64,000 nt of DNA from Lachnospiraceae bacterium (GCA_963594125.1 CAVBCV010000002.1:42211-106210), one strand, 5' to 3'; shown: positions 30,801 through 47,179, numbered from the stretch's first letter. Notes: generated by a model from the sequence alone, not told the origin. Program-made: numbers and translations.

Positions 30801-31937
30801 ATCTCTGACAATTCGGCTGTTTCCGGGCGCTGTTTTGCCAATTAAGCTACCATCTTTATCAACAACATTGCCATAAGCGTCAGCCGTGCCGATTTCGTTA
30901 CCGTTTAAATCAACAGCCTGTCCGTCAGGAGTGATATAGCCGATAATATTGCCGTCCGCATCTTTGATAACCATGGTGTCACCGGTTGAAACTTTACCGA
31001 TTACATCGCCGCTTTTATCTAAGACATTGCCATTAGAATCAACCGTACCAAGGCGTTCGCCTTTTAAGTCAACCGCTTTACCGTTCGGGGTAATGTAACC
31101 AATGATTTTTCCGTTAGAATCGCGGATAACCAAATTTTCACCGGAAACGGCTTTACCGATAACATTACCATTTTTATCAATAACATTGCCATTAGCGTCA
31201 AGATAGCCGATTTCATTGCCGTTTAAGTCAAACGCGCGTCCGTCAGGGGTGACATAGCCAATAATATTACCGTCAGCATCTTGGATAAGCATGCGTTCAG
31301 CGCCATCTGAAGCGCCGCCGGAAGGAGTGGTGGTGCAAAAGTTGCAATCGGCCTGCGTAACTGCTTTACCGTCAACCGGAACTTTTTCAGCTTTGGCATT
31401 TTGCGCACCGACATTAGTTTCATGCCATGAGATAATAAAATTATTCTGCACATTGCCGCCGGTGGTCGGGAACCATTGCATGGTAACATTACAAGTTTGA
31501 TTGCCGCGTAATTCTTTGCCGCTGCAATCATCATCATAGCGGAATCCCTCAAACGGAGGTTCGGCAAGCTTTACTGAAACAATGCGAATAGGCGTTTTGC
31601 CGGTGGTGCCGATAGTCAGCACGTTTTTAGCATCTGTGCCCAACACAACCTGCCCCATATTAACCGGGTTCGGCGTGGTGGTAATCGGGAGTTCGGTTTC
31701 CTCCACTTCTTCAAACTCAAGATTATTGATGAGAGGATTGGTGTTTTCATTAAAATCTATTACATTGTCATCAGCGGTAAATACCGGCTCTTGTGATTCT
31801 TCGGGAGCCGCCCCGCTTGAAAACAACAGCAACAAACCAAATAAAAACACCACAAAAGAAGTAATACCAACAATCAAAATTATTCGGTTGGTTTTACGAA
31901 CATATCTTTCAGAGTGTGTTAAAACTTCTTTACTCAT
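27822..31937 (-). CDS. giant repeat protein with VirB10-like N-terminal topology (cytoplasmic tail, single TM, Pro/acidic linker)
   Basis: MSKEVLTHSERYVRKTNRIILIVGITSFVVFLFGLLLLF gives a cytoplasmic N-terminus plus one TM. An acidic/Pro linker and a Cys-containing globular segment follow. Then about 1100 aa of the same 11-aa repeat family (DxNGNxIGxVxPDGxxVD...) organised in about 44-aa super-repeats. It ends 10 nt upstream of the VirB10-domain gene. Confidence 0.6.
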   Translation of the reverse strand: MSKEVLTHSERYVRKTNRIILIVGITSFVVFLFGLLLLFSSGAAPEESQEPVFTADDNVIDFNENTNPLINNLEFEEVEETELPITTTPNPVNMGQVVLGTDAKNVLTIGTTGKTPIRIVSVKLAEPPFEGFRYDDDCSGKELRGNQTCNVTMQWFPTTGGNVQNNFIISWHETNVGAQNAKAEKVPVDGKAVTQADCNFCTTTPSGGASDGAERMLIQDADGNIIGYVTPDGRAFDLNGNEIGYLDANGNVIDKNGNVIGKAVSGENLVIRDSNGKIIGYITPNGKAVDLKGERLGTVDSNGNVLDKSGDVIGKVSTGDTMVIKDADGNIIGYITPDGQAVDLNGNEIGTADAYGNVVDKDGSLIGKTAPGNSRIVRDTSGNIIGYVTPNGQVVDLNGNKLGTLDAKGNVLDKSGKTIGKAMADDGKNRIAYGPDGKIIGYIDDEGYVRDEDGNVIGRVNEDGLIVDENGNIIGVAGNKKLIYDDNGNVIGKVSADGKAFDFNGNVIGKEISDGTVVDRNGVKIGKSVEAGYVYDSNGNVIGRVLEDGTVVDKEGNVIGRLNSNGEVVDMNGNVIGYVSKPGRTAVDESGNVLGVVMPDNSIVDTDGNVVGYVDENGDAYKLSNEKIGKLGASRQIYYDADGNAVGYIDEDGTIYDFNGNKIGKKLEDGTILDANGRVIGKMQPDGTIIDERGNIVGRVGEYNNLAVSDDGKVLGYVKKDGSVVGADGGIVGRVDKDGNVISNKAVKIGAIVRADLIPITPEGKVLGNVSPTGEVINTRGQVLGRMLPNTLVKEANGSKFVAKGVRGGTIIGWGCSNVGVLNKTGVITKDGQDMPYHVYADGSVYNEKNIYMGDVVKTGRVFDNSCNYLGDADEQGIVKNEDKKYVGCVNPDGSVLNDNGDIIGKVARYKVAFNAEGGVVGRLVPTGNVVSAALLPVGCVNTDDEVFTSDGIYLGKISQPFYAFDLNGKLLGTFESDGSLQIKAHPDAKLFLHKYIADKNNKIIGVALPEKNILLNSDGNIIGRLFADGNVYDNKGAVIDRIYGDGMSFYIGNIGKLLPFGKVVDFNGKNVGFINADGRVVTRFGEHLGQADAKGRWFDDKHQYAGGIVRTGAAIGYDGSYLGYVKADGTVIDKKGKKAGLENSDGLILNADNGNVIGEVVPESVVTDLFGNYTGYTDASGGVRDLNSKRTTFILPGGASDKNLSVLKRGVVINYGGKIIGSVLPDGAVINTKNVVIGKVYSDGKAVNKEGRLIGEIADADIVINNQDKVVAYVGFDGTVRGFDNSVIGRVLSGRLAVDNQNAILGMSYKTGTAIVSNDGKYLGRLAATGRVISGNGKDIGYLKSNGSFVDLDKNVSGYALQEVAQNRRN

Positions 31938-31949
31938 CTTTCTTATGCT

Positions 31950-33626
31950 TTACTGAATACGAACCACACTGCAGAACACACCGTTACGACCGAGCTGGCT
32001 GCAAATTTCATCACCGGCATCTATGGATTGAACCGGTCCGATTCTTAAGTGGAACAGCTCGCGTCCTTGTCCGTCAGCCGGAGCGTCAACCGAATAAAAC
32101 GGCTGATAACCGCCAAGCGCCGATGAATATTTGCGCGAAAGTTCTCCCCACAAGTTTTCCAAATTGCCAACATCAGAATCGGTGCCAAGTTCTACGGAAA
32201 TGCTGGCGACATCATCGCCTTCAAAGCCACTGCCGTAACGATAATCAGCAAACGGATTTTTGCCTTCGGGCAGCTTGCTCTTGTTATCAATATGATGCAT
32301 TTTGCTGTAATCAAGGTTAAGAGCGCCTTTACCGCCAACACCGGCATTAAAGGACGAGCCTTTGCCGCCCGCGCTACCGCCGTTGTTACCGGCATTACCT
32401 GAAAGGGCGTTTACGTCAACACCGACAAAGGTTGCTCCGCCCATGTTGCCGCCCGCGCCGTTAGCGCCATTTGCTCCGGCACCATAGCCGTTATAATTAT
32501 CAGCGCCACCCGGTCCAAAGCCTTGAACTACACCGCCTTTACCGGAAACAGAAGCTTTTTTGCCTGACGGTAAAGCAGGCGGAACCTGCCAATCATCACT
32601 TTCGGCATATTCAACATATTCAAGTCCGGCATCATCGGCGCGGCGCAATTTTAAGCAAATTAAGCGTTTGCCGTTGCGCAAAACCATATCGCCGACACCT
32701 TCAACAATGATTAAACGGTTGTTAGGTCCGGCAGTACGGAAGCCGACCGGAGTTTCAACACGCTCAACAATTAAGGTTACAATCGGGCGCTGAACCATAT
32801 TTAAGGCTTTTTCGCCAAAATCAATATAGGTGAAAATATCGTCACGCCAAACGCGTTCCGGCGCAATAACCACATCATCAGGGTTAGGAACATAAACTTC
32901 AATATCAAAACGGAATTTGGTCGGGTCAAGCGGAATGCTCTGAATCCAATCTTCTTTTTGATTGCGCTTGGTAAACAATGAATCGGCCGATTTATTGCTG
33001 CCGCCGCGATATGCGCTGGCATTTACGCGACTACCGCCGGAACTACCACCTCCGATAGCGCCGACGGAACTCCCGTTTTTTTCCGCGTCCACAACCTCAA
33101 TATCAATAATTGAGTTAGTTAAGCGCTCAGTATTTACACCCTCACTGCGAGCATAAAACGCATATTTATTGCCTGAGCGACCAAAAACCATAATATTAGT
33201 ATCAACACCAACCATCGCGCCTGATTTAGGATACAATAGTAATGTGTTAGGTCCGGAAATACGGGCGTCAAAAGTTTTGCTATCGCCGATGTAAACATCT
33301 TCAACCAACTCCCATTCCGGAAAGTTTACAAGCGTTATCATACCTTCGCGCAGGCGTACCGGCAAAACCAAATCAGGCGACCAATAATAGCGGGAATATG
33401 CCGGCTTGCTTTGCCCTTCGCCCAAGTTTTGCAATGGGTCTAACCATGCGCTTTGCATCATACCCAAGGAGCTGATACCGGTATAACCCATGTTCATCGG
33501 CTGATACATGCCCTGACTTTGGTCGGCATTTTGGTTTAAGCTGTCAATGCTCGCTTGCGCGTGCGCTGTCAACGGCGCCGCCATTAATGCAAAAACTGAC
33601 AATATTTTACTAACACAATGTTTCAT
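31950..33626 (-). CDS. virB9: VirB9/TrbG-like protein fused to a C-terminal SPOR-like domain
   Basis: Signal peptide. VirB9 N-domain (MITLVNFPEWELVEDVYIGDSKTFDARISGPNTLLLYPKSGAMVGVDTNIMVFGRSGNKYAFYARSE). VirB9 C-domain (VVIAPERVWRDDIFTYIDFGEKALNMVQRPIVTLIVERVETPVGFRTAGPNNRLIIVEGVGDMVLRNGKRLICLKLR). Long Gly/Asn-rich linker. The C-terminal approximately 70 aa (ASISVELGTDSDVGNLENLWGELSRKYSSAL...ELFHLRIGPVQSIDAGDEICSQLGRNGVFCSVVRI) has the SPOR two-half pattern. Confidence 0.75.
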   Translation of the reverse strand: MKHCVSKILSVFALMAAPLTAHAQASIDSLNQNADQSQGMYQPMNMGYTGISSLGMMQSAWLDPLQNLGEGQSKPAYSRYYWSPDLVLPVRLREGMITLVNFPEWELVEDVYIGDSKTFDARISGPNTLLLYPKSGAMVGVDTNIMVFGRSGNKYAFYARSEGVNTERLTNSIIDIEVVDAEKNGSSVGAIGGGSSGGSRVNASAYRGGSNKSADSLFTKRNQKEDWIQSIPLDPTKFRFDIEVYVPNPDDVVIAPERVWRDDIFTYIDFGEKALNMVQRPIVTLIVERVETPVGFRTAGPNNRLIIVEGVGDMVLRNGKRLICLKLRRADDAGLEYVEYAESDDWQVPPALPSGKKASVSGKGGVVQGFGPGGADNYNGYGAGANGANGAGGNMGGATFVGVDVNALSGNAGNNGGSAGGKGSSFNAGVGGKGALNLDYSKMHHIDNKSKLPEGKNPFADYRYGSGFEGDDVASISVELGTDSDVGNLENLWGELSRKYSSALGGYQPFYSVDAPADGQGRELFHLRIGPVQSIDAGDEICSQLGRNGVFCSVVRIQ

Positions 33627-33644: not shown

Positions 33645-34391
33645 TTATTCGGCTTTATTACGTGAAAGCGAATATCTGGTAACAGTAAAGCCTACCGGAT
33701 TATTCAAACGTTCACCATATTTAACGGTCTTTTTACGATACATAATTCTTAAAGAAGCGGTCCAATAATTAATTTCCGGCGCGGAAGAATCAGGATACAT
33801 ATCACGAGTTTCATATTCAACCTGCCATAAACCGCGACCAAGCTCGTTTACGGTCATAATCCGCACCACTCTGATTAAACCGCGGTTACGAATTATATTT
33901 AATGCCGGTCTGGCGGTTTTTTCAACAAACGACTGATAAACAGCCGATGATGACATCTCCTGCAGCTGTCCGCCCGGCATCCAACGAGATTCCATTTCAG
34001 AAACATCGTTGGTAAAGGCGCTGCGCAACAACACATACTCGCGAACAAAAACTTCAGTTATGGCTTTGCGGTCTTCCATATTGCGCAGAGGAACGATGTC
34101 ATAAACCTGTTCCTGTTTGTTTTCAAACGTTAACAAAAACGGCTCAAGGCGGTACAGCGGCAAAAGCTGTGTAATTGCCAAAATTAAAACCAAGTTACAA
34201 CACAAGCTGATAGCAACGATAACCGCAAATGCGCGCGCCGTCCACAAATAGCGCTTTTCACTGGCGTTTACCACAATATCTTCAGCGCGGCGTCTTTGCG
34301 GCTGAGGGCGACGCACCGCCTGACGCGGCATTCCGCCCTGTCCGGTAATTAAACGCTGCTGCGTGTTGCCTATACCTAACCTATCTGCCAT
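33645..34391 (-). CDS. virB8: VirB8-like protein (paralog a)
   Basis: Cytoplasmic N-terminus, one TM (FAVIVAISLCCNLVLILAI), periplasmic NTF2-like domain ending in NPVGFTVTRYS (VirB8-type NPxGFxVTxY motif). Confidence 0.7.
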   Translation of the reverse strand: MADRLGIGNTQQRLITGQGGMPRQAVRRPQPQRRRAEDIVVNASEKRYLWTARAFAVIVAISLCCNLVLILAITQLLPLYRLEPFLLTFENKQEQVYDIVPLRNMEDRKAITEVFVREYVLLRSAFTNDVSEMESRWMPGGQLQEMSSSAVYQSFVEKTARPALNIIRNRGLIRVVRIMTVNELGRGLWQVEYETRDMYPDSSAPEINYWTASLRIMYRKKTVKYGERLNNPVGFTVTRYSLSRNKAE

Positions 34392-34404: not shown

Positions 34405-34593
34405 TTATATTGTTGCGACAAACCAATCCGGAAGGGTGTGCGGAAGCTCAACTTCAATGCAGGCGCACGGAGAAAGTTTAAGTTCGTTTACGTCTTTACC
34501 GACACCTACCGGCTCAGGCTCATAGTATGAACCGAACAAACTGCATGCCGACAAGACAACAATCACCAAAAATAGAATTATTTTTTTATACAT
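34405..34593 (-). CDS. virB7: small lipoprotein, VirB7-like
   Basis: 62 aa. MYKKIILFLVIVVLSAC lipobox. Located between two virB8 paralogs and upstream of virB9, as VirB7 is in rvh-type loci. The call is by position and size. Confidence 0.5.
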   Translation of the reverse strand: MYKKIILFLVIVVLSACSLFGSYYEPEPVGVGKDVNELKLSPCACIEVELPHTLPDWFVATI

Positions 34594-34733: not shown

Positions 34734-35492
34734 TTAAAGAATTTCAACTTCTGTCTGAGAATATCGGGTTACGGTAAAGCCGAGCGGGTTCATCAAACGT
34801 TTAGCCATAAACATTCGCTCAGGAATAAACACCGCGGTAAGCGATGCCGTCCAATATTTGGTAACAAGCACCATACTGCCGTTTTCAGAATTGCGAACAT
34901 CAGGCGAAAGGTCATATGTGCGGAAGTCAATTTTCCACACGCGGCTTTTTTCACCGCCGACCCGACCGATTGAAATAATTTCAGCATCGCGAACCACTCT
35001 GGTTTTTAATAAATCGCCAAGGTCTTTGAGCTGTTTGGCCTTAAATTCGGCATAAACCGACGGCGACGAGAGGTATGAGACCATACCGCCCGCATACCAC
35101 CTGCTTTGCATTTCGCGCTCGTCATTTAAGACCGTATTGCGCAAAAGTACATATTGCCGAATAAAAAGATCCATAATTTGATTGGAAGAGGGCATATCGG
35201 GAGCGATGGTTTCATAACGCACCATGGTGTCGGAACTATCTTGTTTGATAATTAAAAACGGCTCCACCATAACCTCAGGGGCAAGCTTAAACAGCACCAA
35301 CGAGGCACTGGTAAAAAAGCCCAATGACAATATGGCAAACAACATTACCAACCGCGACAACCAGCAATAATAAAGCTCTTTGGCGCTTTTTACCGCTGAT
35401 TGTCGGTCGGTGATGTAATTAACCTGCCGCGGGGCGGCGTTTGCATCGGTTATAGATAAAGTTTCGTTTCCGTTTCCAAGTTGATTTACCAT
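34734..35492 (-). CDS. virB8: VirB8-like protein (paralog b)
   Basis: Same architecture as paralog a: TM (LVMLFAILSLGFFTSASLVLF), C-terminal NPLGFTVTRYS. Clearly homologous to 33645-34391. Confidence 0.7.
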   Translation of the reverse strand: MVNQLGNGNETLSITDANAAPRQVNYITDRQSAVKSAKELYYCWLSRLVMLFAILSLGFFTSASLVLFKLAPEVMVEPFLIIKQDSSDTMVRYETIAPDMPSSNQIMDLFIRQYVLLRNTVLNDEREMQSRWYAGGMVSYLSSPSVYAEFKAKQLKDLGDLLKTRVVRDAEIISIGRVGGEKSRVWKIDFRTYDLSPDVRNSENGSMVLVTKYWTASLTAVFIPERMFMAKRLMNPLGFTVTRYSQTEVEIL

Positions 35493-35504: not shown

Positions 35505-38500
35505 TTACTCTTCACTTCCGCAATAGGGTTCTTCAAAGTTGTTCAAATTGTTCTGAAACTCTTTTTCAGCCTCGTCTTCATATTTTGAACGCGCCTGTTC
35601 ATCAGCCCGAGCGGTTTTGATTTTTTCAGATAGTTCGGAGTTCGGCTCGCTGTTATCGTCTAAGTCAACCAACTCTTCATTATCCATTTGCAAAGAGCCC
35701 ATTATGTTCTTTACCTTTTTAATTTTTTCTTCCAAGGCGTCATTTAACGGCTTAACCTCGGCAATTTGCTTTGCGCCCTCAGCGGTTAAAGCGTTTTTGC
35801 GACTGTCAAGCGCCGCGGAAATGGTGTTGAAAGTGCCCTCATCCGATAAGTCAAAATCAGCCGGAGGAGTATAGCCTATGTCAGCAAATTTCTTTACCAA
35901 GAACTCGCGAGTTTCATTCATTTTAACTTCAAGCTCATCTACCGAATCCTGATAATGAGTTTCCATTTCAACAAAGTTCAGATAATCGCCGAAAACGTTG
36001 CGGGTAAACAAAGCCTTGCGGTAAGTATTCATTTTATGAATATCCTCATCGCTGGTGTCGTCACTGTCATCAGCTTCAGCCTCGTCAAGATATTGCATGA
36101 TTTTTACAATAGTTTTGCTAAAGTCTAAGCCTCCGTTGGTTACCTTAGGCGGGAAGGTTATGACCGCATCGCCGGTATAGGACAAGATTTGCGCCAATTC
36201 GCTCCTACCTTCCGACTTATCGGTTGATTCATTTTCAACCGCGCCGGTCTTAAAATCAGCGCCATCATTAAAGGTGATATAACCTCTGCCCATAATTACC
36301 TTGACTGATTTAACATCAGTACATTTTTTGGTGGTAACCTTTTTGTGGTAGACTTTATATTCGCCGTTTTTAATATCAACCACATAATTGCCGTATGCAC
36401 ACGGGTATTTATCGCCGCGGAGCACTTCATCACCGGCATCGGTGTTGTTCATGCCGCCTAAAACCTCAGTAACATCAACATCGCGCTCAACAAAGCCGTT
36501 CGGCTCTAAAACAAGTTTCCAAATCGGCGGAATTTCTTGTCCGTAGGCTAAAAAGTCAGCGCGGGTGGTTTTCCATAAATCTGATTTAACAACATTGCCG
36601 AAATCAACTCCGTCAAAGTGAACAACCTCTCGCATCGGCGGAGTGTAGCTGATGGTTATGCCTTTCGGCGCCTGAAAATCAGCGAGTTTCGGGTCAAGTC
36701 CGACAAAGTAATTATCATCAGCCTGATAGCATTTTTCACCGCCGCACATTTGTTCAACAATAGCGGTTGCCGCCAATTTGGCTAAAGCTTTAACATCGCC
36801 GAACAGAAGCAAATCAGAACCGGCAAAGGTTGCGTTTACTTCTTGCATGCTTTGCATCATTTCGCGGTGAATTTGCAAAATTTGCTGATGTCCCGCCAAT
36901 GTGTAACGAGCATCACCTAAGCCTTGAATTTTGCCATAAGCCTCATCAACGCTGGCAAGAGCCGCGGTTTTAAAGGCGTCAATCGCATTATCGGTAACGC
37001 CAAGCACCGCCGACAAATAAGTTTGTTTAAGCTCAGCCTCTTCCGTTGCAAAGCCGGAAGCTTCCGAAACAAAGCTGCTGCCGGAAAGCGAGTGCTGCAC
37101 AATGCTATCTTGCTGCTGTTGCATTGCTTGCTTTAAGGCTTGCATATTTTGATATTCAAGAGCCGAAGCATTGGCGGCATAATCGCTCTTTAAACGGGCG
37201 ATTTTTTCATCCAGACTTTCAAGCTGAGAGCGCAACTTGTCTATTTGCTCGCGCTTAGCCTCAATGCCGTTCAAGGCTGTTTCTTCTTTAGCCTTGGCTT
37301 CCTCAGCCTTCTTTTGCATATAAGCAACGCCTTGTTCGCCGCGTTTTTCAAAGCTCTTGTCATAAGCAGATGATTCTTTGCTCTTTTCCTGTGAAATTTT
37401 AATAGTCTGCTTTTGATAATCAGCGTTTGCCTCCGCTTCCTGACGCTCTTTGACCGCGTCATTATATTTTTCCTTCATGCCGTTAAGCTCAAGGTTAGCG
37501 GCGTCAAGACTTGCGTAAACGGAGTTTTTCTGATTTTCAAGCACGGCTAAACTTGCCAGAAAATCATCACGCAATTTTTTAACCGCAGCATCGGCTTTTT
37601 GCTTAGCCGCCGCCAAGTTTGAAACCGGCGCATCTGCGGCAACAGCGGCTTCGGCAAACGGAAGCATATTAGTTAAAGCCTCAGCGTTAAATTCTTTAAC
37701 CGTATCAATGGTGAACTCTTCAGGCAATTCAGGCTCGCCGTTAAAATCAGTGATGGCGCCATTGATAGACATTGCCAAATTAACGGCGACAACTCTTAAA
37801 TCAGCGTTATTGATATATTTTTTGATATTTTCATACTTTAATTTAAGATACTGGTCATAAACATGTTTTTCATCGGTCCAAATCGGGTACGCGCCTTTCA
37901 TGCCGCCCCATTTAGGGCTGGCAGACGCCATATCCGCGCCGATTGCTTTCGCCATTTCAGCGCCAAGCTGCCAGGTCATCAGCTCCTCGCGGCGGTTTTC
38001 GGCTTCCGCTTTAGGCTCGTCGCTCGGGCGCAATAATGAACTGTCGCCCAAGCCGCTTGCATTTTCCTGCTTTAAGCGTTCGGTATTTTTTTCCATATTT
38101 TCAATATTGCCGTCACCGTCCGCTATTAAGCTGGTGGAGTAATCATCTGAGGTCAGCTCCAAGGTTTTTACCGCTTTGGCGGCTTTATAGGCTGAAATCA
38201 GCCAGCCGCTCATACCGGCGCGGTTTGAATATTTGTTAATGCCGTAGCTGCTGCAAATTTTGTTGCCGCAGAGAATATCGCCTTCCTGCAAATGTTTTAA
38301 GTTTTCAGGCGTTACCGGTTTGCCGCTGTCGCAGTAAAGGTTAGTGCCGGTATAGCTGCACCCCTCGCCTGCCCAAACATCAACCGGTGTTGCATAATAT
38401 TTATTTACAAATTTAACGGCGCACTGCTCTGATTTTAACAGTTGCTCAATGGCTTTTTCATGAAGTTTTTTCATTTTAGCATATTCTTCAAAGCCGCGCT

Positions 38501-39563
38501 TATATTCAGGCAACTGACGTTTGAGGTTATGCGCGGTTAAAGCAAGCTGCAAAGTTTGATAAGCGTTGTTGGCTTCCGCCGAGCTTTGAAACTGCTTAGC
38601 GGTGCCGGTAAACTGAGTTTTAACCTCATACGGCTTAGCATCGGTAACCGTAGGAACATTAGCGGCGCCCGTGGTGACCGGAGTAACCGTATAATCGCCG
38701 TAAGAAGTTTGCGCAAATGCCATTTGCGTGGTTTGAGTGTAGGTAAACACGTCATTATAACTTGTTTTTTCCTCTTCACCGGCATGATTTATTTCATCAT
38801 CGGTCGGCATACGCGGATTAATACCCGCCAAAATAGCCTGCGCGACTTCATATTGAGCTTTAACCGCCATTAATTCTTCCGTGATTTTAAGCATAGAATC
38901 GTAAATGGCATTCAGCTTATAATAGTTGGTCCATACGCCCAATTCCTCATCATTCGGAGAGGCGCTGTCGCAAGCGGTGCTGTCGCCATTTTCTTTGCCT
39001 TGAACATAACAGCCGCTTAAAGCGTCAAATTCTTCTTTAAGCTTAATCATGCGGGCTTCCAAGTCGCGAACGGCGATGTACATTTCAATCATAGAATCGT
39101 TGCCGAACTCCATACCCTTTTGGCGATAAGCTTTTTTAACCGCCTCTTGATATTTCGGGAATCTTTTCAGCATAGCGGGCGGATAAGTATAAAACAGCTC
39201 GTCCATTGCCGCTACGATAGACTCTTCATCGGTTATATCGGCAACTTCTGAGGTTTCAATAGTGCGAACCGAGGCAATAGCCGGATAACCTTTTTCTTTG
39301 TGCAAAACAGAAGTATCTATTTTGAACGGAATAATTCTGCCCGCTGATTTTAGAGCGTCAAGCACTTCCGCCTGTTTTTGATTGTAGGAGTCATAAACAG
39401 TTGAAAGCTTGGTGAACACGCCCTGCACTGCCGAGCCGACATCACCCGCCACATCAAGGGTCGGGGTAATCGGGGTCGGAGGAATCATCCACGCATCAGC
39501 CTTTAACGGCAGTAATGCGATAGTAAAGGTAAATAAACCTATATGTAAATATGATTTTTTCAT
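35505..39563 (-). CDS. giant secreted coiled-coil protein (1352 aa), unknown function
   Basis: MKKSYLHIGLFTFTIALLPLKADA signal peptide and no further TM. Long heptad-like, charged helical regions. A Cys-containing middle segment and an acidic tail. Lies in the T4SS operon between the secreted helical proteins and virB8b. Confidence 0.6.
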   Translation of the reverse strand: MKKSYLHIGLFTFTIALLPLKADAWMIPPTPITPTLDVAGDVGSAVQGVFTKLSTVYDSYNQKQAEVLDALKSAGRIIPFKIDTSVLHKEKGYPAIASVRTIETSEVADITDEESIVAAMDELFYTYPPAMLKRFPKYQEAVKKAYRQKGMEFGNDSMIEMYIAVRDLEARMIKLKEEFDALSGCYVQGKENGDSTACDSASPNDEELGVWTNYYKLNAIYDSMLKITEELMAVKAQYEVAQAILAGINPRMPTDDEINHAGEEEKTSYNDVFTYTQTTQMAFAQTSYGDYTVTPVTTGAANVPTVTDAKPYEVKTQFTGTAKQFQSSAEANNAYQTLQLALTAHNLKRQLPEYKRGFEEYAKMKKLHEKAIEQLLKSEQCAVKFVNKYYATPVDVWAGEGCSYTGTNLYCDSGKPVTPENLKHLQEGDILCGNKICSSYGINKYSNRAGMSGWLISAYKAAKAVKTLELTSDDYSTSLIADGDGNIENMEKNTERLKQENASGLGDSSLLRPSDEPKAEAENRREELMTWQLGAEMAKAIGADMASASPKWGGMKGAYPIWTDEKHVYDQYLKLKYENIKKYINNADLRVVAVNLAMSINGAITDFNGEPELPEEFTIDTVKEFNAEALTNMLPFAEAAVAADAPVSNLAAAKQKADAAVKKLRDDFLASLAVLENQKNSVYASLDAANLELNGMKEKYNDAVKERQEAEANADYQKQTIKISQEKSKESSAYDKSFEKRGEQGVAYMQKKAEEAKAKEETALNGIEAKREQIDKLRSQLESLDEKIARLKSDYAANASALEYQNMQALKQAMQQQQDSIVQHSLSGSSFVSEASGFATEEAELKQTYLSAVLGVTDNAIDAFKTAALASVDEAYGKIQGLGDARYTLAGHQQILQIHREMMQSMQEVNATFAGSDLLLFGDVKALAKLAATAIVEQMCGGEKCYQADDNYFVGLDPKLADFQAPKGITISYTPPMREVVHFDGVDFGNVVKSDLWKTTRADFLAYGQEIPPIWKLVLEPNGFVERDVDVTEVLGGMNNTDAGDEVLRGDKYPCAYGNYVVDIKNGEYKVYHKKVTTKKCTDVKSVKVIMGRGYITFNDGADFKTGAVENESTDKSEGRSELAQILSYTGDAVITFPPKVTNGGLDFSKTIVKIMQYLDEAEADDSDDTSDEDIHKMNTYRKALFTRNVFGDYLNFVEMETHYQDSVDELEVKMNETREFLVKKFADIGYTPPADFDLSDEGTFNTISAALDSRKNALTAEGAKQIAEVKPLNDALEEKIKKVKNIMGSLQMDNEELVDLDDNSEPNSELSEKIKTARADEQARSKYEDEAEKEFQNNLNNFEEPYCGSEE

Positions 39564-39576
39564 TGCTTATTACTCC

Positions 39577-40824
39577 TTACTTATCGGTTACGCCTGCCAA
39601 AATGCCGGTTTTGTCTTCATCAGTCGGCACATCTTTTACCGTAAACACGTAATTATCCAAATTGAGCTTAGCCGGATCTTTATCATAATTCAGCAAGCGA
39701 TACTTTTGGTTACGAATGTTTAATGATGTTTTTAAGCGCATATCGGCAATGATTAAATTGGTGTAGTTATACAAAATTTTAATATCTTCAATTCGCTGTT
39801 CAATCAGCAAATTACCGGCCGTTAACTTAGCGTCAACTGCGGCGATGTTATCTTTTTTACGCTCTAAGCGCTCCAGATCATCATCAAAATGCAATTTAAG
39901 TTCAGCCGCTGAGATAAACGCGTTTTTAACGTCCGCGGTTAAAACTTCTTCACGATGAGTGCGAATGCGCTTAACGTTAGGTTCGTTTTCAGGCTCATCA
40001 GGCAGCAAGAAGTTTTCCTTTATCATGGCGTTATATTCCGTGGTTTTTTCTTCCGGGCTCTTTTTAAGCATCGGGGCAAGCGCAGTTTGCAAAAACTGTT
40101 TACCGGTATCTATGCCAAATTCAGCAAGCTGTTTTTCAAGCAACTTTTTCTCTTCAAGCAGTTTTTGATAAGTTTCGTCATCTTTTAAGAAGCCGTCTTC
40201 ATCTTTGTCAAACTGCTCGGCTTGAGTGGTGTAATTTTGAGCCTCAAGCTCAGCCGCCGCAAGTTGCGTGGCAATCATATTGCGAACCTCATCATCGGTT
40301 GCTTCCGCAAGCATCTCTTGCAAAATTTTTACATTAGTGACCGCATTTTGCTGGTTAGCCAACAGCTGAGTTTCGGCATTCTTTTTATAATCGTCCATTT
40401 CTTTTTCTTTGTCGGTCAGCTGTTTGGTAATTTGCGAAACCTGTCCGGCGTCAGAACCGGTTAAACCCGCCACTTGTTCCTCATAAGTTTTAACCGTTTT
40501 ATCTTTTAAGCCTTCAACCGTGCCGGTAACTTCATCAATTTTTTTCTGAGTGTTTTCATAAGTATCCTGAACGGATGAAGCCGCCGCCGCAACATCTTCT
40601 TTAAGAGCTTTAACGCTTTCAACCGCGGTGTTGGCGCCGGTGTAAAATTCTTGCACTTTACCGGCGACGGTGTTTACAACCGTGCTCGCTTTTTCAGCGG
40701 TTTCCTCAACCACGGAAACAACTTTACCCGCGGTTGCCGCCACGTCAATTTTTAATCCGGCGCGAGCCTCTGCTCCAACACATGTCAGTGCCAAAAGCAA
40801 AATAACAAATCTATTTTTCTGCAT
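39577..40824 (-). CDS. secreted coiled-coil protein (415 aa)
   Basis: Start at MQKNRFVILLLALTCVGAEARA (ATG 40824, RBS AGGAGGG) rather than the longer ORF-track start. Entirely helical and charged. Confidence 0.55.
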   Translation of the reverse strand: MQKNRFVILLLALTCVGAEARAGLKIDVAATAGKVVSVVEETAEKASTVVNTVAGKVQEFYTGANTAVESVKALKEDVAAAASSVQDTYENTQKKIDEVTGTVEGLKDKTVKTYEEQVAGLTGSDAGQVSQITKQLTDKEKEMDDYKKNAETQLLANQQNAVTNVKILQEMLAEATDDEVRNMIATQLAAAELEAQNYTTQAEQFDKDEDGFLKDDETYQKLLEEKKLLEKQLAEFGIDTGKQFLQTALAPMLKKSPEEKTTEYNAMIKENFLLPDEPENEPNVKRIRTHREEVLTADVKNAFISAAELKLHFDDDLERLERKKDNIAAVDAKLTAGNLLIEQRIEDIKILYNYTNLIIADMRLKTSLNIRNQKYRLLNYDKDPAKLNLDNYVFTVKDVPTDEDKTGILAGVTDK

Positions 40825-41503
40825 TGTCACCCTCCTGTGTTTTTTCTTTTTCATTTTCATAGTTTTGAATAGCCATAGTGCTCTTGTAGGCATTTATAGC
40901 GTCTTGCATACCCATAATTCTCTCCCATCTGGCGAGCGAGCGCAACTGCATAGCATTGCTGGCGTTAAACGCCTCTTCAATGGTGTTGAGCGAATAATCG
41001 GGGTCTTCTTCTTCTAACAACTCTTGCCGCAAAATCAGCGCTCTGGCGTATAACTGCGCTGCCGCAACCTGATTTTCACGGTTAATTGATTCACGCAATT
41101 TGCGCGCGACCGTGTTGTTGTGGTCTTCGCCCCAAGTGCGGTTATAGGTTGATTTTACGGTTTCAATATTTTCATCCTCGTTGGGTTTTTCATCCAAACT
41201 GTTTTCCATACCGGAGAGCACCGCGGTTTTAACAATATCTTTGGGATCAAGCTCATCAAGCTTAAAATCTTTAATATTTTGAATATCCTTTTTGGCATCG
41301 CGGAAACCCTGCTTAACCTCAGAGGAAAGATTTTTAGCCTCGGTTAAAACATCTTGAACCTGTTTTTTAACCGCTTCATATTTGATGACAAAGGCGTTAA
41401 TAGCGGCCTCTATCGCCTCAATATCAGCCTTTGCCGGCACTGCGTAAAGCACACCGGCTAAAAGCATGACTGCAAATTTTAACCGCCTATTCATTGCCTT
41501 CAT
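40811..41503 (-). CDS. secreted alpha-helical protein, VirB5/TrbJ-like by size and position
   Basis: About 230 aa. MKAMNRRLKFAVMLLAGVLYAVPAKA signal peptide. All-helical sequence. Downstream of virB4 where virB5 normally sits. Confidence 0.45.
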   Translation of the reverse strand: MKAMNRRLKFAVMLLAGVLYAVPAKADIEAIEAAINAFVIKYEAVKKQVQDVLTEAKNLSSEVKQGFRDAKKDIQNIKDFKLDELDPKDIVKTAVLSGMENSLDEKPNEDENIETVKSTYNRTWGEDHNNTVARKLRESINRENQVAAAQLYARALILRQELLEEEDPDYSLNTIEEAFNASNAMQLRSLARWERIMGMQDAINAYKSTMAIQNYENEKEKTQEGDNAEK

Positions 41504-43052
41504 CCTTATTTTCGTTTTTGTAATAATCAGGATCAAGCATTTCAATCGTGCTTACGCTTTCAGTAACCAACTGTCCGGTTAAAGATTCCATTAAGCGGAT
41601 AATTATTTCTTGGTTAATCAAGCCGACATTACCTGAAAATGAAATTTCTTCACGCTCGTTGGTTAAAGCCTCAGATTTTTTCTCAAGATCTTCATTAACC
41701 TTTAAGAAGTTAGCGGAATAGTTTTTATGCGTTAAGGCAACCGCCAAATCATTTGCGATGTGGTCATGCTTGGCGATTTTGTAAATACGGAGCCATTCCG
41801 CGGCAACTTCCGCATTGGGGTCATGCAAATCAACCACCCATTTTTTAACGCATTCCGCAACTTTTTCCTCGGAAAGTTCATCAACGTTCATATCGCATTT
41901 TTTAGCGATTTCGTCTGAGTAAATAAACTTACCGTCATCATTGGTTCCGGTTTTGAATTTAGGATTTTTCTTAACAAACTGAGCGAACGCCGCAGGTTTG
42001 GTCATCATGGCATACGAGCTGATAATGTCCTCGGTTTTATCGGCGGCGGAAGTGTTATACTTAAAGCGACGCGCGCCGCCTGAGGCGCTGTCCTCATCAA
42101 AATCAGGTTTAAGGAGCGGTCTGTCATTAAAATCGGGCATAACTCCACCGAATCCGGAATCATCGCTGCTATCAAAGTCAGGAGTTACCGGAAGTTCAGA
42201 ATCGCTCGGTTCATCGGGCAAGCTCGGAACATGCGGATTGTCAGGCTCGCTCGGGGCTGACGGAGTGGTAGGTAATTGCGGCTTATCACTGCCCGGGGTC
42301 GGCTCAGGAACATCATCAAAACCGCCGTCATAGCCGAAGTCATCATCAAAGTTTTCATCAAACTCTTCATCGCCGGTATCCCAATCTTCACTGTCGGAGC
42401 CGTTACCGGTATCAGGGCGATATGATAATGAAACATCGTCAAATTTGCCTTTAGCGGTATTATATTTTTGCAGAGCCTCAAGATATTCGTCTTCAAGCGC
42501 GGCTCTTTCCGCTTCAGAGGCGTTTTCATAACGCTGTTTTATGCTCTCATACTCTGATTTAGCCCGCTCATAGTCAGCCTTGGCGGAGTCATAAGCTTTT
42601 TGACCATCGCTGTTATACTTATCGCCGTTACCTATAATGTCTTTGGTGGTAGCGGAAAGGTTATATTTGCCAAGTTGCAAATACGGGTCTTTGATATTGT
42701 TAATAATGCTGCCGATTTCAGCCTCCCACTGAGCGCGCAATTTTGCCAAGCGCTCGGCGCGGCGTTTTTTCTTTTCAAGACGCTGACTGAGTTTTTCAGC
42801 CTTTTCTTTTTCATCAACGAATTTAGACAGAGCGCCGACATTATCGCCGATTGCCTGCTGAATTTTGCCGACAGATAAGGTTGATTTAATGGTTGAGGCG
42901 GTTGATTTTGCCTTAGTGACATAGCCGGAGATGGTGTTAAGCACCTCGGCAATATCAAAAGTCGGCCATAAAAAAGCCTGACATGGGGTGGTGTGTAAAG
43001 CAACGCATATAAACGCCATTGCGGTTACGAGTGTAAGTGTTTTCTTTTTCAT
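41487..43052 (-). CDS. secreted coiled-coil/acidic protein (521 aa)
   Basis: MKKKTLTLVTAMAFICVALHTTPCQA signal. Coiled-coil block (KEKAEKLSQRLEKKKRRAERLAKLRAQWEAE). Acidic Pro/Asp-rich region and a C-terminal globular domain. No TM. Confidence 0.55.
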   Translation of the reverse strand: MKKKTLTLVTAMAFICVALHTTPCQAFLWPTFDIAEVLNTISGYVTKAKSTASTIKSTLSVGKIQQAIGDNVGALSKFVDEKEKAEKLSQRLEKKKRRAERLAKLRAQWEAEIGSIINNIKDPYLQLGKYNLSATTKDIIGNGDKYNSDGQKAYDSAKADYERAKSEYESIKQRYENASEAERAALEDEYLEALQKYNTAKGKFDDVSLSYRPDTGNGSDSEDWDTGDEEFDENFDDDFGYDGGFDDVPEPTPGSDKPQLPTTPSAPSEPDNPHVPSLPDEPSDSELPVTPDFDSSDDSGFGGVMPDFNDRPLLKPDFDEDSASGGARRFKYNTSAADKTEDIISSYAMMTKPAAFAQFVKKNPKFKTGTNDDGKFIYSDEIAKKCDMNVDELSEEKVAECVKKWVVDLHDPNAEVAAEWLRIYKIAKHDHIANDLAVALTHKNYSANFLKVNEDLEKKSEALTNEREEISFSGNVGLINQEIIIRLMESLTGQLVTESVSTIEMLDPDYYKNENKDEGNE

Positions 43053-43132: not shown

Positions 43133-45565
43133 TTACGCCATATTTAAATATTTTGTAACAAAGTTCTCTTCTCCGTATTCTTTAATCAACTGTTCAACCA
43201 ATAATACGTTTTTATTACCGGAGTTGTACAGTTTAAGATAAGGTCCTAACGCCCCTAAGTTGACGTCTAGCACCACTGACTCATCGGTGTCCGGTCGTTT
43301 AAGCAAAATAGCGTACGGAAAATCGCGATAAGTTTTACCAAATATAAAGTCAAGCTCGCTTTGCGTAAGGTTCCAGTTGGCATAATCCTCCGGCAAAGCC
43401 TGCGCATTACGGAAAAAGATCATTGTTTTACATTGTCCGCGGATAACCTCGCCGACGCCTAATTTATCAACAATATTCGGTTGTTGGAACGCGCACAAAT
43501 ACGCCTGACGTTTTTTACGACCTTCTTGCAAACCGATGATAAAGTAATCACGGAACATCGGGTGTTTTAACATCGGCGCGGTTTCATCAATCATAATCAA
43601 TGTAGGCGCACCGGTAGCGCTGGCTTCAGTTTGAATACGGTGCATGATGTAACTGATTACCGCCGGAGCCAAGGTTTCATCTTCAAAGATGTGGGTAAAG
43701 TCAAACGCCATAAAACGCTTAGACTTTAAGTCAAGGCTATCGGTATCGGAGTTAAAAATATTGCCGTATTGGTCAGGATTTACCCAGCGATAAAGTTCGC
43801 GGCGCATGGTTCCGGTCGGTGAAAAACAGCTTTTGTAAAGGTTTTTCATAATACGTTCTTCCGGACGCAAATAGTCAAACGCGGTAGTAACGGCGCGGGC
43901 AATTTCACGTTCAGATAAGGCATCGTCCGCCATGGTGATAGACTTCATCCAACGGCGCAAAAAGGCGCGGTTGTTGGGGGTATTGTCTGTGTCAAACGGG
44001 TTTAGAGTAACGTTCTTTTCATCACCGTCAAAGCCGACATAAGCGCCGCCGATAGAACGGGTGAAAATTTTGGCACCGTTAAGGCGGTCAAAGAAGAACA
44101 CTTTTAAGTCACCATGGCGCATCGCCTGCCCTGCCAAAAAGGTAAGCAAAGTGGTTTTACCTTGACCGGTAGGACCGATAATACAGCAGTGAGCAACGGC
44201 GTATTCATCAGATGTAATATGAAATTGGAAGCGGTACGCCGAACCTGACATGGTGCGGAACACCGTGATGGCTCCCGGACCCCAGTCACTTTTGCCGAAA
44301 CCTTCTGACGGTTTGTCAAACGAGATAGCAAGCGCAACCACGCGCGATAAGTAACGATAAGTTCTGGGATAAGTGTCATAAGTCGGGAACTGGCTGAAGA
44401 AAGTTGCCTGCGTAACCCAACCCTCGCGCACCGGCGTTACGCCATAGGTGCGGCAAATACGTTGAACTTCGCTCTCGCCAAAGTCAAGCTCTTCTTTGCT
44501 GGAGCCCTTGATTAAAATACTCATTGAATATTCGGTTAAAGCCTGATAATCGGCGTCGCTATCTTCAATGGTGGAAAGAGCTTGTCCGTATTGGTTAACC
44601 ACTTCAGATGAAAAGCTGGTTAAAGTTGCCATACGCTGTTGCTGAATAAGCATCATGCGGGCTTGCGGCTTAAAGATTGGGCGCACGTTATGCAAAAGAA
44701 CCAACTCGCAGTCTATGGAAAGGAGCGAAACTATCATGCTCTCGTCCATATAGTCGCCGGTGGTGCGAATACCCATTACAATTTCATATAATTCCTTATC
44801 GCCGCTGAAAAAGCGGATAATGCCGTCTTCACGCGTAAAGTGGATATGGTCGGCGGTGAGCATTTCATTAAGCTCGGCGCCTTTGGCGTTGCGAACCTTG
44901 GGCAGCGGCCTTGAAACCGGACTGCACAAGCGGCTGAAAACATAAAACGGGCTGTCGGTTGCCGGACCGTCGGGGCTTTCAAGCATCGGGGTAACCCCAT
45001 ATTCGCCAAGGGTGGCAATCAGCGATTGGCTGGCGTAGTTTAAGTCTTTGAGCGCGTCCTTGCGGTCAATAACCGATAATATAATATAGTGTTTATTGCT
45101 ATAAACACGGCTCATATTATCCATCCAAATTTCAGAAACTTTTTCCAAAATTTCGTTGTTGAAGTTGCCCTGCTCGTTATCAAGCGCGGTGCGTTCGCGG
45201 TCAGTGATAACGCGGCAAACAATTTGCAGCTCTGAAAGGTTGTCAATCCATGATTTGCGGGCTTCCATCATGGAATACATTTTTTCCGGAGTGGCGGAGC
45301 CTAAGTCAAGCCCGGTAACACGAAACACACGAGCGTACGAGCCGTTGGTGCAACGAATGGTCATGCCGTCTGACATAATTTCAGCAAACGGCAAAAAGTC
45401 TGACACGCGCGACTCACGCGGCTGAGGCAAAACCCACGAGCCGAACTTGGACGAGAGCAAAACCGCAAACGCCGCCGCTGAGATAAAACCGACAACAGCC
45501 ACCACAACTTCAGCGTTGGTGAGGCCGGAGACAAACATATTAAAAAAATCAAAATCAGGGCTCAA
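43133..45565 (-). CDS. virB4: type IV secretion ATPase VirB4
   Basis: 810 aa. Walker A CIIGPTGQGKTTLL, Walker B LIMIDETAPML. N-terminal membrane-associated segment. Immediately follows a VirB3-like gene with a 4-codon-scale overlap. Confidence 0.9.
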   Translation of the reverse strand: MSPDFDFFNMFVSGLTNAEVVVAVVGFISAAAFAVLLSSKFGSWVLPQPRESRVSDFLPFAEIMSDGMTIRCTNGSYARVFRVTGLDLGSATPEKMYSMMEARKSWIDNLSELQIVCRVITDRERTALDNEQGNFNNEILEKVSEIWMDNMSRVYSNKHYIILSVIDRKDALKDLNYASQSLIATLGEYGVTPMLESPDGPATDSPFYVFSRLCSPVSRPLPKVRNAKGAELNEMLTADHIHFTREDGIIRFFSGDKELYEIVMGIRTTGDYMDESMIVSLLSIDCELVLLHNVRPIFKPQARMMLIQQQRMATLTSFSSEVVNQYGQALSTIEDSDADYQALTEYSMSILIKGSSKEELDFGESEVQRICRTYGVTPVREGWVTQATFFSQFPTYDTYPRTYRYLSRVVALAISFDKPSEGFGKSDWGPGAITVFRTMSGSAYRFQFHITSDEYAVAHCCIIGPTGQGKTTLLTFLAGQAMRHGDLKVFFFDRLNGAKIFTRSIGGAYVGFDGDEKNVTLNPFDTDNTPNNRAFLRRWMKSITMADDALSEREIARAVTTAFDYLRPEERIMKNLYKSCFSPTGTMRRELYRWVNPDQYGNIFNSDTDSLDLKSKRFMAFDFTHIFEDETLAPAVISYIMHRIQTEASATGAPTLIMIDETAPMLKHPMFRDYFIIGLQEGRKKRQAYLCAFQQPNIVDKLGVGEVIRGQCKTMIFFRNAQALPEDYANWNLTQSELDFIFGKTYRDFPYAILLKRPDTDESVVLDVNLGALGPYLKLYNSGNKNVLLVEQLIKEYGEENFVTKYLNMA

Positions 45566-45845
45566 ATTTATTCCCCTTTTCCGGATACAAATTTTTTGAA
45601 ACTACGTTGGTTTGCCCGAAAGCCTGAATCATTGCCGAAAGATGAGGTTCCTTAACTCCGGCAAATACAATGGCGGCATGCACCAACACAAACGTGACCA
45701 CAAAAAGCAACGGGTTAATATCTGCTACACCGATTGCCATAAACATTACCGGAAACTGAATGCCGGCATTAAGCACCACAGGCAAAACCGGCCCCCAAAA
45801 TATTTTGGGCGGCTGAGCCACTGCTTTTAATATCATATCCTGCAT
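45555..45845 (-). CDS. virB3: VirB3-like membrane protein
   Basis: 96 aa with two hydrophobic helices. PVLPVVLNAGIQ...LVHAAIVFAGVKEPHLSAMIQAF resembles the VirB3/TrbD core. Overlaps the virB4 start. Confidence 0.6.
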   Translation of the reverse strand: MQDMILKAVAQPPKIFWGPVLPVVLNAGIQFPVMFMAIGVADINPLLFVVTFVLVHAAIVFAGVKEPHLSAMIQAFGQTNVVSKNLYPEKGNKFEP

Positions 45846-45972
45846 TTTATGCTTCCTCTAATAATTTATGTTTATATTTTTAAGCGGTATTTAAGCCGCG
45901 TCAACTGCTTTTAGCAAATAATCCACTTTTTAGCAAAACAGCAGGCGGAGTTTGCAGGCTCCGCCCGTTTAA

Positions 45973-47157
45973 TTAATTGCCGAAAAAGCCATCCATACGG
46001 TCGCCGAGTTCCTCAGCTCTTTTACCGGTTTGGTAAGTTTCTCTGCCTAAAACAGCAGCGCCACCTGCCGCATCAGCTCCACCCTGAATACCGCCGGTTA
46101 CAGTACCAACCGCCGTGCCAACACCGGAGTTAGCAATGCCTGACGATCCGGCGTTAGTGCCGCTGACGCCGTCAATCACATAGCCCAAATTAGCTAAAAA
46201 GTTTTGGAAATTACCGTTAAGTTGACCGCTGCTGGTGTAAATTTGGTCAGCGCTCATCCCAACCGACGCCGCCAACGCGCCCAATTTATCTAACGCCTTG
46301 CCGTCACCGGAGATAATATCGCCGATACGCACCGCGCCGTTTTCAGTGGCTTTTTTGAGTAATTTAGCGTATTCAACCGCGTTAAGAGCCTGATTGGCAC
46401 CGGCAATACCGGCATTGGCGATGCGAATAATATCCGCCATTACCTGCGCCGGATTTTTTTGGCATACACCGTTTTGAATTTTGCCGGAACAGCATTGACG
46501 CGCGCCGTTGTTATAACGACAGCCGTTGGAATCCCAGTCGGTAACCGTAGGAGCATTGCTACTGGTCGGCGGAATTATACCGCCGCCGTTAGCGCCTTCA
46601 GCGCCGCTGCTGACGCCGGGGATAGCCGGCAGATTAAAGCCGCCGGATTGTGTGCCAGGGTCATCTTTGCCGTCAGGATCTTTATCGCCGGGGGTTTTGT
46701 CAAGCTGGTCTTGCATTTCTTGGTTAGGATCTCGGTCAGGGTTGCCGTCCGGGCATTCTTGACCTTTACAATCTTTGCCGCCGTCGTCTGTTTCCGGAAT
46801 GTCGCTGCCTTGAATTGACGAGCCGCCGCGAATAAAGTTGCCGTAGCTGAACTGAGAATCTTCAAGATTAACTCCGGCAAAATAGTTAATAAACGGCATC
46901 ATTACCGCTAATAACGACAAACCAATCATGATATAAGCAAGGTGCTTAAAGCTGATTTTGTTAAAAATCGCCAGCGTGGTGAACATAATTAAGCCGAAAC
47001 CGGCAATAACATAAACAATACGGCGAACATCTATCACCGTGGTCATCATTTTTTGCGATATTACCTGAAAGATGTTATCCGCCGCCATGGCGCTTGCCGG
47101 AAGCAGCAGCACGCCCAAAAGCAGAGTTAAAAACAAATATTTAAATTGATGTTTCAT
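45973..47157 (-). CDS. VirB2/TrbC-like pilin core with about 280-aa Gly-rich, Cys-containing C-terminal extension
   Basis: Signal peptide MKHQFKYLFLTLLLGVLLLPASAMA. Two hydrophobic helices (IVYVIAGFGLIMFTTLAIF / AYIMIGLSLLAVMMPFINYF) as in T-pilins. A long G/D/P-rich tail with CxxxxC pairs follows. Confidence 0.5.
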   Translation of the reverse strand: MKHQFKYLFLTLLLGVLLLPASAMAADNIFQVISQKMMTTVIDVRRIVYVIAGFGLIMFTTLAIFNKISFKHLAYIMIGLSLLAVMMPFINYFAGVNLEDSQFSYGNFIRGGSSIQGSDIPETDDGGKDCKGQECPDGNPDRDPNQEMQDQLDKTPGDKDPDGKDDPGTQSGGFNLPAIPGVSSGAEGANGGGIIPPTSSNAPTVTDWDSNGCRYNNGARQCCSGKIQNGVCQKNPAQVMADIIRIANAGIAGANQALNAVEYAKLLKKATENGAVRIGDIISGDGKALDKLGALAASVGMSADQIYTSSGQLNGNFQNFLANLGYVIDGVSGTNAGSSGIANSGVGTAVGTVTGGIQGGADAAGGAAVLGRETYQTGKRAEELGDRMDGFFGN

Positions 47158-47179
47158 GACCGCCTCCGTTTAAGTTAAA

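Follow-up and report, generated by a model that had tools for sequence, protein, structure and literature searches.

VirB5-like paralogues and a giant secreted protein in a chromosomal VirB-type secretion locus

To our knowledge, no other essential part of the VirB-type type IV secretion systems (T4SS) is as poorly conserved and as little understood as VirB5. Its tasks are to cap the stalk, to initiate pilus growth and to make contact with the target cell. The crystal structure of TraC is a three-helix bundle with a globular helical appendage. In Helicobacter pylori, adjacent genes encode CagL, CagI and CagH; CagL is regarded as the VirB5 analogue, and the three proteins are thought to act together at the T4SS surface. 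VirB5 assembles as a pentamer on the platform formed by VirB6, initiates the polymerisation of VirB2 and finally occupies the tip of the pilus (PMC12857230). The Trw system of Bartonella, which lacks VirD4 and has multiple variable copies of VirB2 and VirB5, is believed to produce variable adhesive pili (PMC12857230). TrwJ binds erythrocyte band 3, and Trw serves host-specific erythrocyte adhesion (PMC2883598, PMC3406051). The locus described here lies in a stretch of 64,000 nucleotides from Lachnospiraceae bacterium (GCA_963594125.1 CAVBCV010000002.1:42211-106210; the window). It comprises four consecutive open reading frames (ORFs) for secreted proteins, p521, p244, p438 and p1352 (35505-43052), embedded in a T4SS operon.

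The products of the four ORFs, three diverged VirB5 paralogues and the separate giant protein p1352, probably represent the exported and variable part of a chromosomal, lineage-specific VirB-type T4SS, with an inferred role at the tip or stalk. The whole T4SS operon, including the four ORFs, is carried by a single, tightly packed gene string on the minus strand, to which all operon coordinates below refer. No minus-strand terminator-like site was found between 35.5 and 43.1 kb.

VirB5 homology of p521, p244 and p438

An alignment of relatives of the protein in VirB5 position of Erythrobacter served as the VirB5 reference set (A6). PF07996 is assigned to many members by precomputed annotation, and for one member the source gives the name VirB5. 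By profile-profile comparison, the only method that revealed the relationship, p521, p244 and p438 are ancient, strongly diverged VirB5 paralogues. The protein p244 [244 amino acids (aa) as longest ORF, 40811-41545; 230 aa from the likely start M15 at 41503, 40811-41503] is a full-length divergent homologue and keeps the predicted VirB5 layout as a whole. Its family aligned with the reference set end to end over 210 columns (Prob 95.9%, E 5.3e-9). After removal of the signal peptides, 183 colinear columns were retained (Prob 72-77%, E 2-3e-5).

The protein p521 (521 aa, 41487-43052) retains a VirB5-type N-terminus and C-terminal domain on either side of a long insert with coiled-coil, acidic and Pro-rich parts. 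The N-terminus of the family matched that of VirB5 with Prob 84-86% and E 6-7e-6. In p521 itself, residues 27-70 (42843-42974), the mature N-terminal segment 'FLWPTFD...AIGD', aligned with 'GIPVID...TIGQ' of VirB5 (Prob 84%, E 7.4e-6), and the spacing from Pro to Gly is 39 residues in both. The C-terminal domain (residues ~411-517, 41502-41822) is homologous to that of p244 (Prob 96.1%, E 3e-9) and more weakly to residues 128-209 in the C-terminal part of VirB5 (Prob 48%, E 1.9e-4). In p438 (438 aa as longest ORF, 39577-40893; 415 aa from the likely start M24 at 40824, 39577-40824), the VirB5-type C-terminal domain is kept. It covers residues 265-374 in the 415-aa numbering (39703-40032) and includes the invariant R291. 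The p438 family (81 diverse sequences) matched the C-terminal domain of VirB5 with Prob 87.1% and E 4e-6, and that of p244 with Prob 97.0% and E 1.1e-10.

Since coiled-coil-rich sequences can match profiles falsely, the key comparisons were rerun with reversed and column-shuffled targets. Real alignments scored 38-52, reversed targets 14-20 and column-shuffled targets at most 14.7. Hidden Markov models (HMMs) of the three families, run on 1104 six-frame ORFs from two plasmid T4SS loci, each ranked the VirB5 gene first. The genes are located between virB4 and virB8, in keeping with the usual place of VirB5 between virB4 and virB6/B7/B8.

Each of the four secreted families has its own conserved motif directly after the predicted cleavage site. 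The motif of the first-gene (p521) family is 'QWPTLD...AIGD', and some orthologues carry the canonical 'IPVID'. In this 'WPTxD'/'IPVID' segment P30 and D33 are nearly invariant and G69 is invariant. A mature N-terminus of the 'IPVxD' type is restricted to the p521 family; p244, p438 and p1352 carry other conserved N-terminal motifs. The nearest plasmid-borne VirB4 proteins (35-39% identity) are encoded on the Erythrobacter aureus plasmid NZ_CP031358 and on the Microvirga plasmid pMVF16-3 (NZ_CP069357). In these operons VirB5 follows VirB4 directly, starts with 'GIPVID...TIGQ' or 'QVPVLD...AIGQ' and shows the same Pro-to-Gly spacing of 39 residues.

A preliminary description of the window had proposed that all four proteins are expanded VirB5-like paralogues or, alternatively, novel extracellular components. 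The first proposal holds for p521, p244 and p438, on account of the comparison with the PF07996-containing set, its controls, the position after virB4 and the p521 N-terminus. It is unproven for p1352, which gave no VirB5 signal and to which the alternative still applies.

The same description placed four consecutive ORFs between virB4 and virB8, each with a signal peptide and no transmembrane (TM) segment. ORF calls and flanking matches (TIGR00929, PF04335) confirmed the arrangement. The longest-ORF starts of p244 and p438 are probably too far upstream; M15 and M24 shrink the gene overlaps to 17 and 14 nt, and the intergenic spacing across the four genes is -17 to +80 nt. Each N-terminus carries a single hydrophobic segment, with a basic K/R n-region and an A-x-A-like end, which was read from the sequence as a signal peptide. 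A Kyte-Doolittle scan flagged this segment only, apart from one marginal window in p1352 (residue 918, 1.65 at a cut-off of 1.6) within the confidently modelled soluble region. In the orthologues, the N-terminal hydrophobic core is kept in 35/40 to 63/63 members depending on the family, and an internal hydrophobic window occurs in 0-2 members per family.

Charged heptad-like helices had been attributed to each protein. By a crude, home-made heptad score, p521 (43% vs 12% in shuffled sequences), p438 (56% vs 25%) and p1352 (42% vs 15%) exceeded their shuffles, whereas p244 did not (26% vs 27%). AlphaFold2 (AF2) models were built from shallow alignments of 27-29 sequences. The dominance of helices is supported for p438, almost all helix by DSSP in a low-confidence model, and largely for p1352, which contains in addition beta domains and ~250 low-confidence residues. 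Acidic D/E tracts had been noted in p521 and p1352. The tract is strong in p521 (residues 204-258, 42279-42443, at least 40% acidic), where a Pro/Ser/Asp-rich linker follows; p1352 has a short run only and a net charge of -66.

Conservation of the module and the possible role of p1352

A VirB4 search of a one-genome-per-species collection yielded 292 loci. Almost all of the best 80 belong to metagenome-assembled genomes (MAGs) of uncultured Alphaproteobacteria, among them 'Proteobacteria bacterium CAG:495' and 'Candidatus Scatocola'. The gut samples came from human, primate, ruminant, rabbit and chicken. Complete loci, spanning VirB4 to VirB8, numbered 62 (63 with the window itself). All 62, from gut and rumen Alphaproteobacteria MAGs, have the module virB4-[4-6 secreted proteins]-virB8. 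Four to six ORFs, none with an internal TM segment, stand between virB4 and virB8, and the last one always encodes a protein of 1217-1654 aa (62/62).

Families were defined by stricter BLAST clustering; iterative HMM clustering fused them via coiled-coil composition. The proteins p438 and p1352 each form one family in 63/63 loci, and the p244 family occurs in 40, while the first-gene set is more variable. Searched against 1.84 billion representative proteins, a profile of p438 retrieved no more than 185 clusters (E <= 0.001). A word-indexed search with p1352 gave 26 relatives without Pfam domains or names, and no exact-sequence match in public assemblies is on record for it. By these searches, both families are narrow and lineage-specific. 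No published account of a T4SS in this clade was found. The extra genes of five- and six-gene modules (interval after virB4 in loci L027, L031-L040, L046, L051 and L062-L080) often link to p244/VirB5 profiles, so the interval behaves as an expandable VirB5 array. Three extra families of the larger modules (~445 aa, 191 aa and 384 aa; clusters 5, 7 and 9) showed no profile link to anything.

Sequence divergence of the module is high. In loci with 86-87% identical VirB4, identity is 41-46% for p1352, 38-45% for p438 and 36-46% for p244. Across all four proteins it ranges from 36 to 61%, often over part of the length only. Ratios of nonsynonymous to synonymous substitution rates (dN/dS), determined against the two nearest relatives, are 0.05-0.16 for the four genes and 0.02-0.085 for VirB4 and VirB8. 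The faster divergence than that of the core machinery suggests that the four proteins are surface-exposed, partner-contacting parts.

The preliminary description had named pseudogene fragments as a finding that would speak against its interpretation. The low dN/dS indicates real genes under purifying selection, intact in 62 loci. It is hardly credible, then, that the ORFs are decaying or chance products and their similarities compositional artefacts of charged helical sequence. The many weak matches to unrelated coiled-coil Pfam and PDB entries would fit such an origin, but the reversed and shuffled controls stay far under the real alignment scores, and the families have invariant residues in common with VirB5.

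It is rather improbable that some or all of the four proteins, in particular p1352, are no machine parts but T4SS substrates that depend on Sec and are exported in two steps, like pertussis toxin via Ptl. All four have signal-like N-termini and diverge fast, p1352 lacks homology to any machine component, and no VirD4 coupling protein was found within the 64-kb window. VirD4-less systems such as Ptl are known to use the two-step route (PMC12857230). Three of the four proteins, however, are VirB5 homologues. Every family stands at a fixed position between virB4 and virB8 in 62/62 loci, a pattern usual for subunits; p1352 occurs in every locus and always adjoins virB8, and the missing coupling protein refers to the window, not the genome. 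Universal synteny and VirB5 homology agree with the earlier view that the proteins are structural parts and not cargo, which remains a deduction.

The protein p1352 (1352 aa, 35505-39563) is present in every related locus, always last before virB8. It is a real, conserved and structured, separate giant secreted protein of the clade, without recognizable relatives outside it, as far as sequence comparison reaches. No Pfam, NCBIfam or PDB sequence matches were obtained. The mature N-terminus is Pro-rich, in some orthologues Pro/Cys-rich ('LLPPGPxTPTxD', 'PPCPICPSFD'). It resembles the N-terminus of a second, longer gene of the plasmid systems, Ea_453/Mv_428 ('PCPSPIMPPPCIVAD', 'FPCPIID'); a profile similarity between p1352 and this gene was not found. 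The AF2 model of residues 25-1200 reached a pLDDT of 71 and a pTM of 0.60; it is confident from about residue 350 on, and the first ~330 residues are uncertain. Predicted contents are a Cys-containing beta/alpha region, a helical hairpin and an alpha/beta region. The hairpin (residues ~649-819, 37107-37619) is modelled as an antiparallel coiled coil of ~170 residues with two ~80-residue helices (H625-706 and H713-795 in model numbering, pLDDT 80-95). The alpha/beta region (residues ~919-1148, 36120-36809) is the best-conserved globular part, with many invariant residues and two Cys pairs. Foldseek returned generic coiled-coil matches only, none at E <= 0.001.

It is very unlikely that p1352 is delivered at the pilus tip as a membrane-active translocator or as a protein resembling an alpha-pore-forming toxin. 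The protein lacks the hydrophobic membrane-inserting hairpin expected of a type III secretion translocator or such a toxin, and no fold match beyond the coiled coil was obtained. All Foldseek matches lie on the long helical hairpin with query TM-scores of at most 0.1; they are regarded as generic coiled coils, because SMC arms, prefoldin and ESCRT-III score equally well.

The slot of p1352 is occupied by virB6 in canonical operons and by the second, longer VirB5-like gene in the nearest plasmid systems. There is thus a slight chance that p1352, perhaps together with p438, is a soluble replacement of VirB6 that forms the periplasmic stalk or cylinder in a T4SS lineage without polytopic VirB6. 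It fills the place between the VirB5 genes and virB7/virB8, and proteins with five or more TM helices in the window are housekeeping enzymes only; the polytopic proteins as a whole comprise these enzymes, a DUF2207 protein and a T2SS-F protein. The two closest plasmid T4SSs (L081, L082) likewise contain no polytopic VirB6 within 18 kb on either side, though a relaxase and VirD4 are present, and have a TM-less VirB5-like protein of 430-450 aa in the VirB6 slot. That plasmid protein, however, is itself VirB5-like, and p1352 is not similar to it. As a VirB6/TrbL protein, p1352 shows no internal TM segment, where five or more are expected, and no Pfam or NCBIfam match. A VirB6 could also be encoded elsewhere in the genome; in Rickettsiales the vir genes are scattered over the genome. 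We know of no T4SS without an inner-membrane VirB6. The substrate, replacement and translocator or toxin explanations each keep a modest share, because p1352 is unassigned and VirB6 and VirD4 may lie elsewhere in the genome.

For the favored interpretation of tip or stalk proteins, the following mechanism is proposed. Sec would export all four proteins. In the periplasm, the VirB4/VirB8 platform would take up the VirB5-like proteins, which may form a stalk cap that nucleates the VirB2 pilus and end at its tip, in analogy to the TrwJ/VirB5 pentamer of R388. Several paralogues would provide a mixed or alternative set of stalk caps or tips. The protein p1352 may act as an attached tip or stalk subunit or adhesin, with the long coiled-coil hairpin keeping its globular domains off the base. 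The system could serve contact with host or neighbouring cells in the gut, and adhesion or target recognition there is the likely role of the module. A further-reaching version is improbable: a new kind of central stalk and pilus tip in a conserved chromosomal T4SS of a widespread uncultured gut/rumen alphaproteobacterial clade, built from three to five ancient VirB5 paralogues and a soluble subunit of 1300-1650 aa, lacking polytopic VirB6 and dedicated to cell contact instead of conjugation.

Several observations weigh against the tip or stalk interpretation. In single-sequence scans, PF07996 was not matched at E <= 0.1-1 by the four window proteins, 56 first-gene proteins or 38 members of the p244 family, and Pfam and NCBIfam scans of the four window proteins gave sub-threshold coiled-coil noise only. 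Profile searches of PDB sequences with p244, the p521 N-terminus and p438 did not retrieve TraC, TrwJ or CagL; including p1352, the matches were designed coiled coils, syntaxin, ATP synthase b and spike HR1 only. The p438 model is of low confidence (pLDDT 52.5), and Foldseek against the PDB gave generic helical bundles with no match at E <= 0.001. In p1352, profile comparisons gave no VirB5 signal in any segment. The sole alignment to the VirB5 N-terminus (Prob 14%) lies mostly on the signal peptide, and segment-wise hhalign against the VirB5, p244, p438 and p521 profiles yielded nothing except one coiled-coil match (P 1.8e-4). The role of p1352 is therefore conjectural, as a link to VirB5 is not detectable. 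The window lacks a polytopic VirB6, the platform of VirB5 in R388, so the R388-derived assembly model may not apply. Tip location and adhesion are predictions.

Operon context and neighbouring genes

The T4SS parts on the strand are two or three VirB2, VirB3, VirB4, two VirB8, VirB7, VirB9, VirB10 and VirB11. The upstream part of the operon (45555-48007) starts with two VirB2 pilins (47603-48007 and 47180-47530), both with TrbC/VirB2 matches. A 394-aa protein with a weakly VirB2/TrbC-like N-terminus follows (45973-47157), and a VirB3-sized protein is encoded at 45555-45845. In this N-terminus the 394-aa protein has a signal and two TM segments; a middle part rich in Gly, Asp and Pro and a C-terminal domain rich in Gly and Ala follow. 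The protein is possibly a third, fused pilin between virB2 and virB3. The VirB4 ATPase (43133-45565; TIGR00929, E 1.7e-111) is the upstream neighbour of the four ORFs.

Downstream, p1352 is followed by a first VirB8 paralogue (34734-35492; PF04335, E 1.7e-14), a VirB7-like lipoprotein of 62 aa (34405-34593; 'LSAC' lipobox, 'VGVG..L..SPCACI' motif) and a second VirB8 paralogue (33645-34391). The motif 'VGVGKDVNELKLSPCACIEV' of the lipoprotein between the two virB8 paralogues matches VirB7 of the Erythrobacter and Microvirga plasmid T4SSs, which gives the gene order B8a-B7-B8b. The remaining operon part (22581-33626) comprises VirB9, a 1371-aa beta-flower repeat protein, VirB10 and VirB11. VirB9 (558 aa, 31950-33626) has a Gly/Asn/Ala-rich linker and a SPOR-like tail, a weak C-terminal match to the peptidoglycan-binding SPOR domain under the Pfam cut-off (E 0.0019). 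Beta-flower/DUF3659 repeats (23564-31937) make up the 1371-aa protein, which has an N-terminal TM anchor, and the first ~1100 residues of VirB10. With PF21785 matches of E 6e-89 and 7e-51, respectively, they represent very large extensions on or beside the T4SS core.

No VirB6/TrbL, VirD4, VirB1 or relaxase was found within the 64 kb. Besides a type IVb pilus cluster, the rest of the window contains housekeeping genes, such as cdsA, plsY, dprA and topA, from which a chromosomal location of the T4SS locus is concluded. The pilus cluster (50238-58899, plus strand) is divergent from the adjoining T4SS operon and encodes TcpQ, a secretin, PilO, a T2SS-E ATPase, T2SS-F and a bundlin-like pilin. Three type-IV-pilin-like paralogues (11419-12054, 21821-22588 and 59035-59832) all contain 'GRSMVEMLGVLAIIGVLSVGAI'; two of them, 41% identical, flank the T4SS and pilus region on both sides. 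A zeta-toxin family gene and a RhuM family gene (8481-11280, plus strand) are located in the stretch of lowest G+C content of the window (0.35-0.38), which may be a small mobile or defence islet.

Comparison with known secretion systems

The VirB5 proteins TraC of pKM101, TrwJ of R388 and TrbJ (PF07996) are, like the proteins of the window, Sec-exported, TM-less, mostly helical and encoded just after virB4. The window proteins differ in being too diverged for the Pfam model, in three to five paralogues instead of one and in the lack of a VirB6 partner nearby in the locus. In addition, p521 and p438 are roughly double the size of a usual VirB5 and contain coiled-coil and acidic inserts.

The gene order on the Erythrobacter and Microvirga plasmids is that of the locus: virB2-B3-B4 and VirB5 come first, a longer VirB5-like gene without TM segments is next, and a VirB7 lipoprotein with the same 'SPCACI' motif precedes virB8-B11. 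Their operon is also without polytopic VirB6. Ea_453/Mv_428 matched the VirB5 profile with Prob 97% and E 5.7e-11, so the closest plasmid systems carry two VirB5-like genes; only one further member of this family was found in the plasmid collection. In contrast to the window, a relaxase and VirD4 mark these systems as conjugative. They have two VirB5-like genes only, and the 1352-aa protein, the duplication of virB8 and the beta-flower extensions are absent.

In the conjugative transposons of Bacteroidetes, a DUF4141 (PF13605) gene is located between traG (VirB4) and traJ, that is, also after a VirB4 homologue. DUF4141 matched 6/56 first-gene proteins (E <= 1) below the gathering score of 30 bits, at best with 24.4 bits and E 1.9e-5 (L028). 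These weak matches, which speak for the VirB5 assignment, share one N-terminal position and cover the mature N-terminus and, in part, the signal peptide; p521 of the window had no DUF4141 match.

CagL, CagI and CagH resemble the locus in gene arrangement, as consecutive operon genes for exported VirB5-related or VirB5-associated proteins; a similarity in sequence is not expected. Unlike the window locus, Cag includes a VirB6 of its own, CagW, together with a coupling protein.

Multiplied VirB5 genes are already known from Trw and, loosely, from CagL/I/H. This locus differs in its ancient VirB5 copies that are each fixed as a family of their own, two of them with large inserts or with the N-terminal half lost, in their association with a partner of 1300-1650 aa and in the absence of a polytopic VirB6 nearby, a trait common to the closest conjugative relatives. 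The locus provides a natural series of VirB5 derivatives, full-length, split by a long insert and reduced to the C-terminal domain, kept as separate orthologous families across dozens of species beside a giant partner with a fairly confident predicted structure. If the proteins assemble together, they would exemplify how subunits of different kinds can make up a T4SS tip, and could explain what abundant uncultured gut Alphaproteobacteria attach to. The apparent absence of VirB6, also in the closest conjugative relatives, bears on the VirB6/VirB5 platform model of pilus biogenesis. Profiles of the families would enable annotators to spot VirB5-like genes missed by Pfam.

In its logic, the locus is best read as closest to Trw of Bartonella. 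Both are alphaproteobacterial, chromosomal VirB-type systems with several VirB2-like and several VirB5-like genes (trwL and trwJ in Trw). In both, no coupling protein is seen nearby, here within the 64 kb, and the exposed components vary in sequence. The Trw copies, however, are recent tandem duplicates, amplified together with trwI/trwH (VirB6/VirB7). The window paralogues appear ancient, with less than 20% identity and a similarity detectable by profiles only, and each belongs to an orthologous family of its own over 40-63 loci. Where Trw amplifies its VirB6, the window locus has none and encodes instead the additional 1352-aa protein.

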